NCBI GenBank assembly: GCA_945923475.1
Contig: CAMELE010000001.1
Coordinates: 99,875 to 163,874 of the forward strand
Source: an uncultured Mollicutes bacterium
Lineage (GTDB): Bacteria > Bacillota_I > Bacilli_A > Acholeplasmatales > Anaeroplasmataceae
Reading direction: 5' to 3'
Length of the DNA: 64,000 nt
The notes under the pieces: generated by a model
Told to the model about the DNA's origin: nothing
Seen by the model: only the letters and a program-made list of their open reading frames with translations
The model's database searches: none
Part shown: positions 19,164 through 62,071 of the stretch, piece after piece
How the letters are laid out: each line of letters starts with the position of its first letter
How positions within the stretch are numbered: the first letter of the stretch is position 1
Translations under genes and position numbers: made by a program

Positions 19164-19192
19164 ATAATATCATATTATTTAATAAATATCAA
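19164..19192 (-). promoter_or_regulatory. sigma70-like promoter TTGATA-N17-TATTAT upstream of dnaE
   Basis: Consensus hexamers at 17-bp spacing. The extended motif tattatataaatataaatgaaag is shared with the promoter at 21456-21484. Confidence 0.5.
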
Positions 19193-19443
19193 ATCGAGAG
19201 ATATAATTATCGCATATACTACGAATATCTCTTAAAAAATTAGAAAAATCTTTTGATCGAGTTGATATCTTATTTATATTATCACAAACCATAGAATTTA
19301 GCATATCTAATTCTACATTTAAGTCATGAGCAAAAAGTTCTAAATTAGAGTTTAAATCCTAAGTTAAATCCGCGTCCTTAAGAAACATATTATTTTCAAG
19401 TATAGCATTAATACTTGAATTTAAATTAGATGTATTTAACATA

Positions 19444-20643
19444 TTACTTCCTTATAATTACTAATTTATCACTGGCTCTAGTAGCCATAGTATATAAATA
19501 TTTTTTATGTTCTTCTCGATCAAAAGGATGATTTTCTTCAAATCCTAATACTTTTCCATACTCGCTACCTTGCGCTTTCCAACAGGTAATAGCGTAAGCG
19601 TAGGAGAAATCAAATGGAGGATCGAGACATTGTTTATTATTTCTTAATTGATAACATTGGCTGCCCGTAAGAGTTCCTTCACCGGTAATAAGTTGTTTAT
19701 AATCAATTGGAGTTCCACAAAATTTATCTCCATCGCTTAAAACAATTTGAGTAAACATATAAGTAATAGGAACTTCTGAAATATAATAAGGGACTCGAAT
19801 GTCTTCAGTATAAAAATCTTCAATAGTCCCAACAGTACCATTAGTTAAAGCCCATACTCGATTTTCAGACATAAAATCCCAGTTATTATGTAATCCAATA
19901 ATTTTATCTCCGATTTGAGGGACATTAGGATCAAATCCTTTTCTTAATCGGACTACATTATTAATTTTAGTTCTTGTGGCATTTTTAGCACAAATAATCT
20001 AATCTGCCCAATCATACATTTCAGGTATAACTTGACTTTTATCATATACTCTCACTTGTTTTCCTTCTGGACGATAAGAAATTAAAGATTTACCTTCTCT
20101 AATCCACATTGAAAAACGAATAATCTCACTATCTTGCGCTTGACGCATAATTTCATCGAGAAAAATATGTGGTTTATCTAATACATGATTATTTTCATTA
20201 GGATCTACAGGAGGCAGCTGGCCAGGGTCGCCCGCCGCGATAATATAAATGCCATGAGTTAGCATCAAATCCCATAATTTTTTAGGAAGCATTGATATTT
20301 CATCGACAACAATTACTTTATATTGCGCTAATTCACTATTATCTTTTGGAAAGAATTTAAAAGTTCCATTAGCCATCATTTTAGCTTTATATAAGAGTTT
20401 ATGCGCAGTTGTTGCATTTGGGCAGCCTTTTTGTTGAAGCACAGTCGCAGCTTTACCTGTAAATGCCACATAACAAACTTCTTCTTCTGGATCAACATCA
20501 AGAGCAGAAATAATAAATTTAATCAAAGTGCTTTTTCCACTTCCCGCGTATCCCGCTATACAAGTCCAACGTTCATGAGCATAATAGCGCTCAACCGCAA
20601 TTTTCAATCCTTCTTCTTGTTTACGAGTTAATTCCATCTTCAC
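19444..20643 (-). CDS. SF1B RecD/Dda-like DNA helicase (399 aa, 1 TAG)
   Basis: Walker A GYAGSGKST and C-terminal AITCWKAQGSEY. The ORFs 19999..20643 and 19444..19872 join in frame across the TAG at 19999-20001. Confidence 0.7.
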
Positions 20644-20842
20644 ATTCTCCAGGGTTTAATCTATAATATTTATTTTCATCAACTTTAAAATAATCACAAG
20701 CCCATTTTAATGTTCCATAAACACCTGTTGTATGTCTATCTATACTATCTAATTTAGAAATTAATTCTTGAGCTTTATTATAATAAGAGCAACTTTCATA
20801 ATTAGAGCAATAATTACATTGCTCTTTCCAATAAATCCACAT
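20621..20842 (-). CDS. hypothetical Cys-rich protein (73 aa)
   Basis: ORF. Confidence 0.35.
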   Translation of the reverse strand: MWIYWKEQCNYCSNYESCSYYNKAQELISKLDSIDRHTTGVYGTLKWACDYFKVDENKYYRLNPGECEDGINS

Positions 20843-21168
20843 TAATCATGCTCTCCAATCACTTCATCTAAAATTTCATCATTTTTCTTTCTCGCATTAT
20901 TTAAATAATCGCTATCTTGATATGAAAAACTTTTATATCCTTTTAGACGCATTAGTGCAATATACCTACCAAAAATATTATTTAAATTGCGCTCTCTTCC
21001 AAGTTGAAGATAATGATTCCATTCATATTCAAGATATGGATAATCTAGTATTTCAAGATACGGTAAAAAAGTTTTTGGATTATCATAATCAATTTCTGAT
21101 AAAATTTCTTCTTTAGTTTTATCTAAATAAAAATTATTATCTCGCTTACGATAATATTTCTTTTTCAT
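20842..21168 (-). CDS. hypothetical protein (108 aa), paralog of 21168..21440
   Basis: C-terminus ILDEVIGEHD matches the neighbour's ILDEAIGEHD. Confidence 0.4.
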   Translation of the reverse strand: MKKKYYRKRDNNFYLDKTKEEILSEIDYDNPKTFLPYLEILDYPYLEYEWNHYLQLGRERNLNNIFGRYIALMRLKGYKSFSYQDSDYLNNARKKNDEILDEVIGEHD

Positions 21169-21440
21169 TAATCATGTTCTCCAATTGCTTCATCAAGAAT
21201 TTGATAAAATCGTAGGCAATCTCTTTCATATAACTTTTTTGCTTTCTTTTGAGCTTCTTTTAGTCCTAAATCAATCGCAAATGTGTTTATATCCATTTCC
21301 ATTGCTTTATAGCGAGCTAATTGGTATCTATAACAAAGACTATCATATATATAACCTTTAGTATGTTTTTCTCTTTCTTCAAAAAATTCTAAACTATTAT
21401 CGTATTTATAAGCTTTATCAATCATTTCTTTTAAATCCAT
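21168..21440 (-). CDS. hypothetical protein (90 aa), paralog of 20842..21168
   Basis: Shared C-terminal IGEHD tail. Tandem duplication. Confidence 0.4.
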   Translation of the reverse strand: MDLKEMIDKAYKYDNSLEFFEEREKHTKGYIYDSLCYRYQLARYKAMEMDINTFAIDLGLKEAQKKAKKLYERDCLRFYQILDEAIGEHD

Positions 21441-21455
21441 AATATTTTTCTTCTT

Positions 21456-21484
21456 TCTTCATTTATATTTATATAATACCATAT
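21456..21484 (-). promoter_or_regulatory. sigma70-like promoter TTGACT-N17-TATTAT
   Basis: Same extended motif as the dnaE promoter. Confidence 0.45.
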
Positions 21485-21493
21485 TTTAATTAT

Positions 21494-21964
21494 TTAGTCA
21501 AATTTAGAATATAATAAAGTCATTATCTGTATTGTTAGCTTGAATTATAATTGGATCTCCAATAGATGCAGTTTCTGTAATAGTACCATTTTTATTTTTG
21601 ATTATATCATGTATGATAGTAGAATTAGGGAAAATTGTGGAGTCCTCATTTTCATCAAAAATTTCTAAATCACATTTTTCATTTGGTTTTTCGATTTCTT
21701 CGCTTGTTCCCGGCCCACTCAGACCATCTTTCCCTGTATATCCGGCTAAAGATACATCAACCCACTTATCTGCAATTTGACTTAGAACTTCATAAAGCGT
21801 TTTTCCGGTAATCCCTAATTGTTTTAACTAATTATCTATGTCCTCGCTGGCTATTGTAAATGAAGCTAAGGATTCGGATAAATTTTTTAATGCTTCACCG
21901 CTTTTTTGTGCGGTTGCCTAATATATCATATTAATGTCATCATCATAATAATTAAATTTTTCCA
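21494..21964 (-). CDS. hypothetical protein (156 aa, 2 TAG)
   Basis: ATG 21964. Continuous through TAGs to TAA. Not in the standard-code ORF track. Confidence 0.35.
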
Positions 21965-60774: not shown

Positions 60775-60864
60775 TTTCTAAATCCCTTTCAAAGTATTTA
60801 CAATTTTTACAAATATATGGCTGTCGTCCTAATCTATCATATAATTGTGCCTAAGTTTTAATCA

Positions 60865-61185
60865 TTAAATCAGCCTCCAATTATTATGCTCAATAATTGC
60901 TTTCATATTCATACGGCCAACGGGATTTTGAGTGTGTAAACCAAAGAGATAAGTAGTATCGGGAATTTTAAATTCTTCAAGCCATTTTAAAATCTCAATG
61001 TAGTCTCCACCGTCTTCAAAGTAATCTCCTGCGTCATGGTCAAGATTGATATAAATACATTCATCGGTCATATTGCGCTCATAACAATTTATGGCGGCTT
61101 TAGCTTCTTTGACACTTTTAACCCAAATCCAATGATCGGAAGGCGGGGTCCGCACGTCATCTACCCATAAATACATAGCAATCAC
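60865..61185 (-). CDS. hypothetical protein (106 aa)
   Basis: ORF with a conserved-looking WVDDVR...LDHD core. Confidence 0.3.
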   Translation of the reverse strand: MIAMYLWVDDVRTPPSDHWIWVKSVKEAKAAINCYERNMTDECIYINLDHDAGDYFEDGGDYIEILKWLEEFKIPDTTYLFGLHTQNPVGRMNMKAIIEHNNWRLI

Positions 61186-61376
61186 ACTCCTTCGTAAGAT
61201 TTACATCTTTTATTCCAACAAGTATCACATTGGCTCTTTTTTCTTTTATGATTTTTAGGATCAATAATTGATAAAACTGTATTTAAAGTATTAGGACAAA
61301 CACCCATATAAAGACATTTATCTTCAACCGCATCCGCAATTTCTGCTCTTAAATCTTGTTCTTCTCTTGGGTTCAT
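61182..61376 (-). CDS. Cys-rich small protein (64 aa)
   Basis: ORF. Confidence 0.3.
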   Translation of the reverse strand: MNPREEQDLRAEIADAVEDKCLYMGVCPNTLNTVLSIIDPKNHKRKKSQCDTCWNKRCKSYEGV

Positions 61377-61378
61377 AA

Positions 61379-61621
61379 TTATTCTCCAAAATTAACTAAT
61401 TTCTCATAATGATCGGGATATCCTTCTAAATGGGGATAAGTAGGATTGCCATAACAAGTAAGACAAGGCCATTTCGCGTGAATAAAACCAAAAGAATCAC
61501 TATGACGACAAGTTTTACATCTTTTTTTACAAGTATTTTTTAAATCATCAAATGAGTTATTAGCTAATTCCCAAAGTCCAGTCATTACATCATTGGTCAT
61601 GATTAATAGCTCCTCTCCCAA
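61379..61621 (-). CDS. Zn-finger protein (80 aa)
   Basis: Multiple CxxC motifs. Confidence 0.3.
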   Translation of the reverse strand: MGEELLIMTNDVMTGLWELANNSFDDLKNTCKKRCKTCRHSDSFGFIHAKWPCLTCYGNPTYPHLEGYPDHYEKLVNFGE

Positions 61622-61806
61622 ATAATAACTGTTTCTTCACAGGCAGGACACTTGATATATTTAGCCCAATAGCCATGATCATTGTCCCAAGGACAAATAT
61701 CCTCCATGCTCTGAATGTCGCTATTTAAAAATCGTAATTGTGATTTGCATTTAGAACAAGTAATTTCTTTCTGAACTTCTGGACCATATTTAATTATTTC
61801 AACCAT
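61603..61806 (-). CDS. Zn-ribbon protein (67 aa)
   Basis: CSKC...CPAC. Confidence 0.3.
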   Translation of the reverse strand: MVEIIKYGPEVQKEITCSKCKSQLRFLNSDIQSMEDICPWDNDHGYWAKYIKCPACEETVIIWERSY

Positions 61807-62012
61807 TATTCAATCACCCAATAAATAGTTTTTCCATTTCCGCAATTAGATTTACCAACTAATCCATGAGAAACAAGTCCACGGAGAACACCACTTACAG
61901 ATGAAGGAGACATATCTACATTATGAGTCTTTTTAATCCATCCAGAAAGCTGAGACGCGGAAACGCACTTATACTTTTTAAGAGTATCAATAACAATTTC
62001 TTTCTTTTCCAT
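61806..62012 (-). CDS. winged-helix protein (68 aa)
   Basis: ORF. Confidence 0.3.
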   Translation of the reverse strand: MEKKEIVIDTLKKYKCVSASQLSGWIKKTHNVDMSPSSVSGVLRGLVSHGLVGKSNCGNGKTIYWVIE

Positions 62013-62042
62013 AAATACTATCTCCTTTAATTTTATATATAT

Positions 62043-62071
62043 ATTATATTATATTTTTATAAAAAAATCAA
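62043..62071 (-). promoter_or_regulatory. sigma70-like promoter TTGATT-N17-TATAAT
   Basis: Downstream (minus sense) of terminator 62083-62109. Confidence 0.5.

Follow-up and report, generated by a model that had tools for sequence, protein, structure and literature searches.

The 64,000-nucleotide stretch of DNA analysed here (the window) covers the early and replication region of an amber-recoded phage of ~195 kb and 30% GC, in which TAG is read as an amino acid. An AT-rich element recurs along it upstream of minus-strand genes, and the question is what these repeats do. The initial annotation listed 13 copies and read them as a host-RNAP-dependent early/middle regulon. The phage has no cultured close relative; its host is probably a gut Bacillota. 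The same in-frame TAGs are found in another contig whose gene caller had read through TAG.

We searched the window for the strict pattern TTGAYW-N17-TATAAT, using 100 dinucleotide shuffles as a control. Twelve sites match exactly, each of them on the minus (coding) strand, versus 0.43 ± 0.61 expected, and 12 was reached in 0/100 shuffles. Ten matches are copies listed in the initial annotation, one is an intergenic promoter (10788-10760), and the last (41799-41771), inside the topoisomerase gene, is probably due to chance. With a matrix of 40 nt derived from the ten strict listed copies, these ten score 30-49 bits and 19192, 21501, 46737, 33785 and 5010 score 13-30 bits; no more than 7.3 bits was reached in ten Markov-2 simulated sequences. 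We count 16 copies: 14 co-oriented matrix copies, the hexamer-only promoter 10788 and the weak copy 5010 (Table 1). Promoter 10788 was rejected as a member of the extended family since nothing beyond its hexamers matches. Every copy has the same orientation as the genes and 15/16 are intergenic; the -35 to -10 spacer is 17 bp in 16/16, and in 12/16 the start codon follows 29-38 nt after the -10. The five best fall in an 11-kb stretch and share at least about 85% identity. All 13 sites proposed initially are present, most of the coordinates given for them marking the low end of the -10 hexamer; at 21456 the element exists (21501-21462) but the position was about 17 nt off.

Table 1. Promoter copies, terminator hairpins and the TAG-free block in the window. 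Copies are named in the text by their higher coordinate; served genes are predicted.
Feature	Position	Strand	Score (bits)	Remarks
Promoter core TTGATT-17-TATAAT+ATATATATAAA	62032..62071	-	48.3	serves 62012-61806 and next small ORFs
Promoter core	58380..58419	-	43.9	without upstream hairpin
Promoter core	54162..54201	-	48.6	left linker of module replaced in strain L235
Promoter core	52015..52054	-	47.1	L235 and L006 homology restarts exactly at first base
Promoter core	50935..50974	-	48.3	strain deletion junction in leader (50922)
Degenerate copy TTGCCT-17-TAATAT+ATTTATAGAAA	46698..46737	-	20.8	absent from initial annotation
Promoter core TTGACT, TGT-TATAAT	42742..42781	-	37.6	serves DUF5662 and topoisomerase large subunit
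Promoter core	34912..34951	-	40.8	serves DNA ligase gene
Variant copy TTGACA-17-(TG)TAAAAT	33746..33785	-	13	
Promoter core TTGACA-17-TATAAT+ATTTACATAA	33494..33533	-	29.6	
Promoter core	31322..31361	-	46.9	
Promoter core	28729..28768	-	44.2	serves YorH-like/DnaB/primase unit
Subtype copy TTGACT-17-(TGG)TATTAT+ATAAATATAAATGAA	21462..21501	-	22.9	strain breakpoints at 21456
Subtype copy TTGATA-17-(TGA)TATTAT+ATAAATATAAATGAA	19153..19192	-	30.3	serves DNA polymerase
Sigma-A-type promoter TTGACA-17-(TGTGA)TATAAT	10749..10788	-		hexamers match; outside range of initial annotation
Weak copy TTTACA-17-TATAAT	4971..5010	-	14	upstream of response-regulator/LytTR gene
Terminator hairpin, 11 bp, 6 GC	62082..62108	-		ends 10 nt before -35 of 62071
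Terminator hairpin, 16 bp	54200..54235	-		T-tail overlaps -35 of 54201
Terminator hairpin, 16 bp, 6 GC	52048..52083	-		3' arm holds -35 of 52054
Terminator hairpin	46819..46854	-		about 80 nt upstream of 46737
Terminator hairpin	42881..42917	-		about 100 nt upstream of 42781; closes endolysin module
Terminator hairpin	34952..34978	-		adjoins -35 of 34951, gap 0
Terminator hairpin	28766..28796	-		adjoins 28768
Terminator hairpin without promoter copy	44646..44677	-		27 nt before endolysin start codon (9 in-frame TAG)
Terminator hairpin without promoter copy	33119..33147	-		16 nt before TAG-containing gene 33103-32090
Terminator hairpin without promoter copy	21991..22022	-		26 nt before TAG-containing gene 21965-21504
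TAG-free early block	46858..63929	-		served by five best promoter copies

The extended signature proposed around the promoter is borne out by the consensus, TTGAtTTTTt.aaAaAaaTaT..TATAATATwTaTAtAA followed by a purine-rich RBS. The whole cassette occupies ~70 nt: a -35 TTGAyT, an AT-only 17-bp spacer, the -10 TATAAT, ATATwTATA, a leader of ~25 nt and a AAAGGAGG-type RBS. The ATATwTATA after the -10 is an easily melted discriminator and start region. TATGnTATAAT, the rule in relatives, occurs in 6/16 copies in the window; the five best window copies lack the TG. Copies 19192 and 21501 share TATTATATAAATATAAATGAA, the longer, distinct downstream sequence noticed initially, together with a TGnTATTAT -10. 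The near-consensus hexamers, invariant 17-bp spacing and fixed co-oriented position agree with σ70/σA early/middle promoters, and we infer that host σA recognizes the repeats; their start sites and early/middle timing are predictions. The early promoters of phage SPO1 are reportedly σA-dependent as well.

The spacer of the best copies is a 14-bp palindrome, TTTTTTATAAAAAA; known σA contacts explain neither this near-palindrome nor the A-run. Together with conservation that extends over the full 40 nt in relatives as GC-rich as 44%, and with SPβ-like replication genes (YorL, 39% identical; YorH and YonG domains), this fits an alternative that is compatible with the main explanation: the hexamers would be a host promoter, and the near-palindrome plus ATATwTATA the operator of a phage-encoded regulator that shuts off early transcription or, in the case of a temperate relative, represses it, resembling the repeated operator elements of SPβ-type phages. 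We regard this as unlikely. Half of the window copies (33533, 33785, 21501, 19192, 42781) show little or nothing of the A-run and palindrome, the downstream ATATATAGAAA is present at host 6S RNA promoters too, and no repressor candidate was identified in the window, the sole DNA-binding regulator found there being the LytTR response regulator in another block. The T-run of the spacer is accounted for by coupling to terminators.

Hairpins directly before the promoters had been reported at 52053, 54204 and 62083; we find these and two more, so that a hairpin adjoins the -35 in 5/16 copies (62071, 54201, 52054, 34951 and 28768). All five fold with an MFE of -20.6 kcal/mol or lower, a value reached by at most 5% of random 62-mers. 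Where a hairpin abuts, the T-run that follows the -35 is longer, both in the window (p=0.016) and at 387 other unique sites (mean 5.0 vs 2.7, p=1e-14), and these statistics show that it doubles as the U-tract of the upstream unit's GC-rich terminator hairpin in about a third of copies. One fused junction would thereby both stop incoming transcription and restart it. The terminator/promoter cassette structure first proposed applies to 5-7/16 copies but not to the remainder, and the promoter-genes-hairpin module describes about half of the copies. Several units have more than one promoter.

The relatives compared, with Thg1 61-70% identical or DNA polymerase 53-82% identical and 28-44% GC, have 2-8 copies in every ~20 kb, which lie almost always on the gene strand and score up to 47 bits; the copy TTGATTTTTTATAAAAAATATGTTATAATATATATATAAAG was found in a 44%-GC relative genome. 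Even when sites are picked by the two hexamers alone, the T-run and A-run reappear, together with T-A-T-G ahead of the -10 and ATaTaTA.AA behind it. The Gram-positive σA promoter is said to include a -16 'TRTG', or extended -10, region, and this motif is present in relatives (TRTGnTATAAT). A genome scan gave matches overwhelmingly in gut and rumen Bacillota, among them the promoters of the Ruminococcus ruvC gene (ruvC by Pfam, 7.7e-49) and of the chromosomal 6S RNA (Rfam RF00013, 65-68 bits) in two Ruminococcus MAGs and R. flavefaciens ATCC 19208. TTGAYTTTT, two Ts of the spacer and TATAATATWTATA were prescribed by the scan pattern, and the independent evidence at host promoters is confined to position, function and the unforced bases (TG, GAAA). 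Cassette features at the Ruminococcus 6S RNA promoter support recognition by the host σA RNA polymerase. They also speak, as do those at ruvC, against promoters read by a phage-encoded or modified polymerase, be it a phage sigma factor, a YonO-like single-subunit RNAP or a virion RNAP of the kind found in phiKZ/AR9-type jumbo phages. A normal bacterial promoter is shorter than this AT-rich extended consensus, the window is 64 kb of a much larger genome, and SPβ relatives reportedly encode YonO, a single-subunit RNAP. However, hexamers at a strict 17-bp spacing, together with TRTG, are what marks promoters of group-1 sigma factors, the served genes are standard-code and early in type, and no sigma factor or RNA polymerase gene is encoded within the 64-kb window, which makes a phage polymerase very improbable.

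Some differences between strains lie at the cassettes. In strain L235 the 2.1-kb YqeY/Thg1 module is replaced by a 0.9-kb Gp5.9-like/NADAR module, the junctions falling where core 54201 ends and on the first base of core 52054, and a 729-bp strain insertion at 19131-19140 lies in the leader of promoter 19192. Cassettes cover 1.9% of positions and hold 5/40 unique breakpoints (p=0.001), and among intergenic breakpoints 5/7 rather than the expected 23% (p=0.01), statistics that rest on 4-5 events and BLAST boundaries. For these few events gene-module swaps break at cassettes, and this may hold generally; the conserved 40-nt core could act as a homology patch for module exchange between strains. 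Breakpoints at cassettes and the near-identity of the five clustered best copies would also be expected from recent spread or gene conversion of a recombinogenic selfish or neutral repeat, its promoter activity being incidental and its bases not individually selected for promoter function. We give this the least credence: the same positions are kept in relatives with no more than 53-70% protein identity and a GC content up to 14 points away; position, orientation and start-codon distance are invariant; and the core is kept while the flanking hairpins differ in sequence.

The genes downstream of the promoter copies are typical early and middle content: RNA repair, counter-defence and replication. 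The block at 46858..63929 encodes Thg1-like, RNA ligase, RlaP-like, phosphoesterase, Macro, SPFH and vault-shoulder proteins, predicted RNA-repair and counter-defence functions, and has no internal in-frame TAG across 46.8-64 kb; the DNA polymerase gene has 0 in-frame versus 50 off-frame TAGs. The genes directly served by a copy almost all lack in-frame TAG, and are therefore translatable before the phage's code change; 28768 is the one window copy whose first gene carries TAG, and in relative L096 all three first genes do. A hairpin plus promoter leads into a TAG-free first gene in 6/7 cases and a hairpin plus RBS into a TAG-containing gene in 4/4 (p=0.015), a terminator-anchored test devised after the data had been seen; the association replicates in relatives ([[1,17],[5,3]], p=0.0045), some of which are akin to each other. 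At the gene level, promoter-proximal genes are not significantly more often TAG-free (window 1/13 vs 17/63, p=0.17; relatives p=0.09). Cassettes are associated with standard-code genes and promoterless hairpins with TAG genes. Mechanistically, the cassettes would drive the standard-code genes (RNA repair, counter-defence, most replication, and the first gene after nearly every copy), and TAG genes (endolysin, homing endonucleases, plus-strand genes) sit behind hairpins running straight into an RBS. Expression of the latter would depend on amber suppression and on either read-through of the terminator or a further promoter.

Taken together, the sequence makes it quite probable that the repeats are promoters for the host housekeeping RNA polymerase (σA/σ70 type), with fused terminators, TAG-free genes and a role as exchange points. 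Every available computational test agrees with the early/middle regulon first suggested, whose timing is a prediction; U-tract sharing, the promoter/TAG-free split and swaps at cassettes go beyond that suggestion.

The repeated early promoter-terminator cassette is a known kind of phage feature, here in a new setting, an amber-recoded gut phage. PeSL (promoter-early stem-loop) cassettes of the T4-type coliphages RB49 and phi1 combine a repeated strong σ70-like early promoter with an adjoining or overlapping terminator stem-loop, and where close strains differ, the junctions fall either at the edge of the promoter or in the stretch from the -10 to the SD (Arbiol et al. 2010, PMC2839356). Ours are likewise composite intergenic repeats among small accessory genes, conserved over tens of bases, with two cores bounding a module swap and a deletion junction in a leader. 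Unlike PeSL, they lack sequence homology to it, belong to another host phylum, have a core of A and T only and hairpins other than polyG/polyC, carry a hairpin in only 5-7/16 copies, and in an amber-recoded phage part standard-code from TAG genes, for which PeSL has no counterpart.

SPO1, a large Gram-positive phage with σA-dependent early promoters (PMC13401047), and the P100-like Listeria phage CKA15, whose early promoters have mapped starts (PMC12282133), similarly have many near-consensus promoters for host RNAP at the start of infection (inferred here), short operons of small host-takeover genes and late genes without this promoter type. The CKA15 early motif, TTGACTT ... ATGnTATAcT, is close to TTGAyTT ... 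ATGnTATAAT here (PMC12282133). Those systems have mapped starts and known sigma/anti-sigma switches, whereas ours is read from sequence and no switch factor was found in the window; CKA15 early promoters have an AT-rich UP element upstream of the -35, and our copies are additionally conserved within the spacer and on the downstream side of the -10. The TTGACA-like -35, 17-bp spacer and TATAAT are those of Gram-positive σA promoters, but ordinary cellular ones lack conservation over 40 contiguous bases. Finally, like the stop-codon-recoded gut phages described by Borges et al. (bioRxiv 10.1101/2021.08.26.457843), this phage is large, belongs to the gut and carries TAG in frame in genes of lysis, of structural type and for homing endonucleases, with variable TAG use in replication genes and early genes in standard code. 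Promoters were not analysed there, the word 'promoter' being absent from the text; here, in contrast, the standard-code/TAG split follows transcription signals, hairpin plus promoter versus hairpin only.

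All 13 sites proposed in the initial annotation are present, and the enrichment of TTGAYW-N17-TATAAT is real: there are 12 matches against 0.43 expected, exclusively on the minus strand. A 40-nt matrix built from ten strict copies among those claimed scores these copies at 30–49 bits, while simulated sequence reaches at most 7.3 bits. Across the 16 copies of the window the spacer is always 17 bp and the TTGA of the -35 element is unchanged in 14, the 12 exact matches reading TTGAYW; the -10 element is TATAAT in 12 copies, TATTAT in two, TAAAAT in one and TAATAT in one. All copies lie on the coding strand and 15 are intergenic, with the start codon 29–38 nt past the -10 element in 12/16 and a purine-rich RBS in between. 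Because the spacer, the start-codon distance and the placement of the RBS are uniform, the repeat is an expression cassette of ~70 nt, more than two hexamers. Copies 19192 and 21501 (named by upper coordinate) make up a subtype, as had been claimed: both carry TGnTATTAT and share 21 identical bases downstream. An extended -10 TGn is found in 6/16 copies and in none of the five best. The A-run and palindrome of the spacer are a part of the conservation for which known sigma-A contacts do not account.

Several other candidates were set aside. A hexamer match inside a topoisomerase gene was put down to chance; it does not show the extended signature. A -35-less promoter class based on the downstream half of the element (TATAATATWTAWA) was rejected, as every exact match is a full promoter; allowing one mismatch adds one copy. 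The motif TATAGAAAG is modestly enriched (7 occurrences against 1.6 expected), mostly just 5' of an RBS, in family promoters and ahead of TAG-containing genes; given the modest enrichment and its presence in family promoters, we do not read it as a promoter.

The terminator/promoter junctions described in the initial annotation hold for part of the copies: five abut hairpins and two have a hairpin 80–100 nt upstream, while the other nine of 16 have none. Eleven intergenic minus-strand hairpins with stems of 8–22 bp and T-rich tails are predicted intrinsic terminators. At fused junctions TTTGATTTTTTT comes right after the stem, which places the -35 element within the T-tail of the terminator. 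In window copies with a hairpin, the T-run that follows TTGAY measures 6, 6, 6 and 4 nt, versus a mean of 2.3 in those without (p=0.016), and among 387 unique sites at other loci the mean is 5.0 with an abutting hairpin versus 2.7 without (p=1e-14). Since the T-run is longer where a hairpin abuts, it would seem to do two jobs, and some of the 'extra' conservation is accounted for in this way. Where the plus- and minus-strand blocks converge there is a very strong 22-bp hairpin with A- and T-runs on its flanks, probably a bidirectional terminator.

Features of the window and of compared loci, with coordinates
Feature	Coordinates	Strand	Remarks
Promoter copies abutting hairpins	62071, 54201, 52054, 34951, 28768	-	hairpin MFE <=-20.6 kcal/mol
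Variant promoter copies	19192, 21501, 46737, 33785, 5010	-	13–30 bits with the 40-nt matrix
Hexamer match	41799-41771	-	inside topoisomerase gene
TATAATATWTAWA, one mismatch	5084-5096		
TATAGAAAG	2670, 5888	+	
TATAGAAAG	44637, 57184, 58387, 4976	-	
Hairpins 16–30 nt before start codons of TAG genes	44646-44677, 33119-33147, 21991-22022	-	
Hairpin 16–30 nt before start codon of TAG gene	2631-2665	+	
Convergent hairpin	8059-8109		22-bp stem
TAG-containing genes	8113-46781	-	e.g. 22922-24670, 12275-14512, 19444-20643, 26619-28151
TAG-containing genes	16-8077	+	
LytTR response-regulator gene	4213-4929	-	sole minus-strand gene within the plus-strand block
GIY-YIG genes	38445-39134, 39701-40474, 32090-33103	-	each with in-frame TAGs
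ORF-free gap	39135-39700		566 nt, beside the GIY-YIG pair
Stretch within the early block	58425-58700	-	see text
833-bp segment	57180-58012	-	missing from strain contigs L234 and L235
Insertions in polymerase gene of L112	16617, 17746 (window positions)		~1.14 kb each
Ruminococcus 6S RNA (ssrS) gene	L115, 7516-7745		
Ruminococcus 6S RNA (ssrS) gene	L163, 1294-1530		
Ruminococcus 6S RNA (ssrS) gene	L141, 3956-4189		

To collect relatives, we took the regions flanking homologues of two window proteins, the Thg1-like protein and the polymerase. Of 80 Thg1-bearing IMG/VR loci, 60 carry no promoter copy (maximum <8 bits); these are other lineages and were left out. Relatives with a 61–70% identical Thg1 or a 53–82% identical polymerase have 2–8 copies per ~20 kb; these score up to 47 bits and nearly all lie on the same strand as the genes. 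Relatives of 40–44% GC also carry the core, and there the 40-nt AT-only block stands out. Sites selected in relatives by their hexamers still show the T-run after the -35 element and then the A-run, T-A-T-G before the -10 element (the Gram-positive TRTG/-16 motif) and ATaTaTA.AA after it; in 46 such sites T occupies position -15 in 93% and G position -14 in 50%. Because hexamer-only selection recovers these flanking bases, the extended signature is under constraint and not merely the result of recent duplication. Overall, the core is found in contexts of 25 to 56% GC. Six high-GC contigs of Clostridia/Oscillospiraceae (L175, 56% GC; L167, 51%; L118, 55%; L199; L125; L161) carry the same 40-nt core at 36–46 bits as an AT island; they have no homologues of window proteins, and their cores, which sit 5' of small conserved ORFs, probably belong to other mobile elements.

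The window has a GC content of ~30%; its first ~8.1 kb has the genes on the plus strand, the remainder on the minus strand. It encodes a 1329-aa PolIII-alpha-type polymerase, a type II topoisomerase in two subunits, DnaB, primase, DNA ligase, RecJ, PIF1 and NrdD/NrdG, as well as PhoH, an RNA ligase, a Thg1-like enzyme, several phosphoesterases, an SPFH protein, a vault-shoulder protein and an endolysin: this is the protein set of a large phage. Near-identical DNA (99–99.9% identity) is found on metagenome contigs of up to 194–198 kb. A megablast of 20 kb of the window against INPHARED gave no match, so that deposited phages include no close relative at the DNA level; among cultured phages the closest is SPbeta, at the protein level only (YorL polymerase, 39% identical). 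The repeated operator of SPbeta-type phages (SPBRE) is bound by a master repressor, MrpR/YopR-like. Exact-protein look-ups gave matches for the SPFH protein and none for the Thg1-like protein or the RNA ligase. A protein with a response-regulator receiver and a LytTR DNA-binding domain, whose gene is preceded by the weak sigma-A-like promoter 5010, is a candidate phage transcription regulator. Two of the three GIY-YIG homing-endonuclease-type genes sit between the topoisomerase subunit genes, where small GyrB C-terminal fragments also adjoin the gap. Rfam at gathering thresholds detected no known RNA family anywhere in the window, and at E<=0.1 it found nothing, including no intron family, in the homing-endonuclease-rich stretch at 37.3–40.7 kb.

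Which polymerase reads the promoter? We scanned one genome per bacterial species with the pattern TTGAYTTTT-N9-TNT-NN-TATAATATWTATA and found at least 119 loci, overwhelmingly in gut and rumen Bacillota. Many of these loci come from relatives of the phage that were binned into MAGs; they have several copies as well as homologues of window proteins. Two chromosomal matches are informative. The first is the promoter of 6S RNA in the isolate Ruminococcus flavefaciens ATCC 19208 and two Ruminococcus MAGs, where the RNA (Rfam 6S, 65–68 bits) starts 17–24 nt past the -10 element; the second is the promoter of ruvC (Pfam 7.7e-49). A TetR regulator called by eye downstream of the match in L127 was not confirmed by Pfam. 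As the pattern forces several features, the independent information lies in the position of the match, the function of the gene and the unforced bases (TGTGnTATAAT, ...TAGAAA). The Ruminococcus ssrS promoters read TTGATTTTT...TGTGnTATAATATATATA(G/A)AA and share the unforced TG and (G/A)AA with the phage cassette. Position, function and unforced bases at 6S and ruvC indicate that host RNAP uses promoters built in this way. The 64-kb window contains no gene for a sigma factor or an RNA polymerase. A close comparator is the Listeria phage CKA15, whose mapped early promoters read TTGACTT ... ATGnTATAcT (PMC12282133); the starts in our phage are predicted. The hexamers, the 17-bp spacing, the 6S and ruvC matches, the absence of an RNAP or sigma gene from the window and the likeness to CKA15 together support reading the copies as host sigma-A/sigma-70-type promoters, and we accept the early/middle regulon originally suggested. 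This promoter grammar indicates a Bacillota rather than a Bacteroidota host for a widespread, uncultured lineage of ~195-kb recoded phages, and offers gut Clostridia, for which few parts have been characterised, a strong promoter/terminator part that is ready for use.

Genes that appear split under the standard code become whole when TAG is read as sense. The in-frame stops of DnaB (2), RecJ (7), PIF1 (1) and NrdD (4–5) are all TAG, and are identical in contig L001, where the gene caller read through them; Pfam domains span them. Because all in-frame stops are TAG and are kept in the read-through contig, we take the phage to be amber-recoded, and rebuilt the gene map with TAG as a sense codon. 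ARAGORN found no tRNA, and so no suppressor tRNA, within the 64-kb window of the ~195-kb genome. All plus-strand genes contain TAGs, the endolysin gene has nine and one GIY-YIG homing endonuclease gene has six. The 46.8–64 kb block, home of the five best promoter copies, is free of internal in-frame TAGs; of the TAGs in the polymerase gene, 0 are in frame and 50 off-frame. In the work of Borges et al. (10.1101/2021.08.26.457843), where promoters were not analysed, recoding is variable in replication genes.

A gene-level test for few TAGs in the gene that comes first behind a promoter did not reach significance (window, p=0.17; relatives, p=0.09), and was replaced by a test anchored on terminators. 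In the window, a hairpin with a promoter copy is followed by a TAG-free gene in 6/7 cases and a hairpin running into an RBS within 16–30 nt by a TAG-containing gene in 4/4 (p=0.015, the test being chosen post hoc). Recoded relatives, some of which are not independent, show the same pattern in this post hoc test ([[1,17],[5,3]], p=0.0045). The 16–30 nt between hairpin and start codon leave no room for a promoter; candidates for transcribing these genes are read-through, antitermination and a promoter inside or before the hairpin. We tentatively propose, with rather less than even confidence, that the hairpin plus 40-nt promoter is a shared, exchangeable regulatory linker in a very large clade of uncultured phages of gut and rumen Bacillota, and in other mobile elements, which splits recoded genomes by TAG content. 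In recoded members, units restarted by host RNAP would keep the standard code and units behind a bare terminator would contain TAG; late and lysis genes would be double-locked, requiring both terminator read-through (or an unseen promoter class) and amber suppression. If true, this would tie the phage transcriptional programme to the genetic-code switch, and modular evolution would have the cassettes as its unit. The type of junction also offers a testable link between transcription signals and stop recoding, from which one can predict the genes that can be read ahead of the code change.

In the T4-type phages studied by Arbiol et al. (PMC2839356), PeSLs combine sigma-70-like early promoters with stem-loops, modules are shuffled, and mini-circles are excised via recombination between flanking cassettes. 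We tested the resulting prediction, junctions at cassettes, on near-identical strains. In strain contig L235 a 0.9-kb module for T7 Gp5.9-like and NADAR proteins takes the place of the 2.1-kb YqeY/Thg1 module: homology extends on the left through the hairpin and core 54201 to ...TATAATATTTATATAA, and returns on the right at the first T of the -35 element of core 52054. The two modules each have their own, differing hairpin. Elsewhere, the first ORF after core 50974 is deleted in a strain variant with the junction in the leader/RBS, a 729-bp insertion separates the leader of core 19192 from the start codon of the polymerase gene, and position 21456, in the leader of core 21501, is a break point of several variants. 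Overall, 5/40 unique breakpoints fall in cassettes covering 1.9% of positions (p=0.001), and 5/7 intergenic breakpoints do so versus 23% expected (p=0.01); both rest on small numbers.

The T7 Gp5.9-like protein is of the RecBCD-inhibitor type, and the early block, in the window and in the gene tables of L234 and L235, encodes ParE-toxin-like and T4 Y16D-like proteins; because of these products and the NADAR protein, the swapped modules look like counter-defence cargo. The 833-bp segment, which has a 119-aa gene on one side and the RNA ligase gene on the other, encodes an ORF of 198–247 aa with weak DUF5889 similarity; neither of the segment's junctions is at a promoter core. The two insertions in the DNA polymerase gene of L112 could be mobile introns or inteins.

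Taken together, the evidence supports strong early promoters of host type, some of them fused to terminators, that also serve as recombination linkers, a kind of element already known. What goes beyond the routine is the amber-recoded setting, in which TAG content is associated with the type of junction, the fact that many uncultured Bacillota phages have kept one and the same 40-nt core, and the scan-pattern features common to the phage cassette and the host 6S RNA promoter. The idea of regulatory cassettes as sites of module exchange is thereby extended from T4-type coliphages to Gram-positive gut phages. As in PeSLs, a host-type promoter is joined to a stem-loop (abutting in five copies, at 80–100 nt in two, absent in nine), and strain indels and replacements have junctions in cassettes, including one clean replacement between two cores. 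Unlike the PeSLs of RB49 and phi1, the cassette belongs to phages of another host phylum and differs in core sequence and hairpin type, and on these comparisons it is an analogue of the PeSL, not a homologue.
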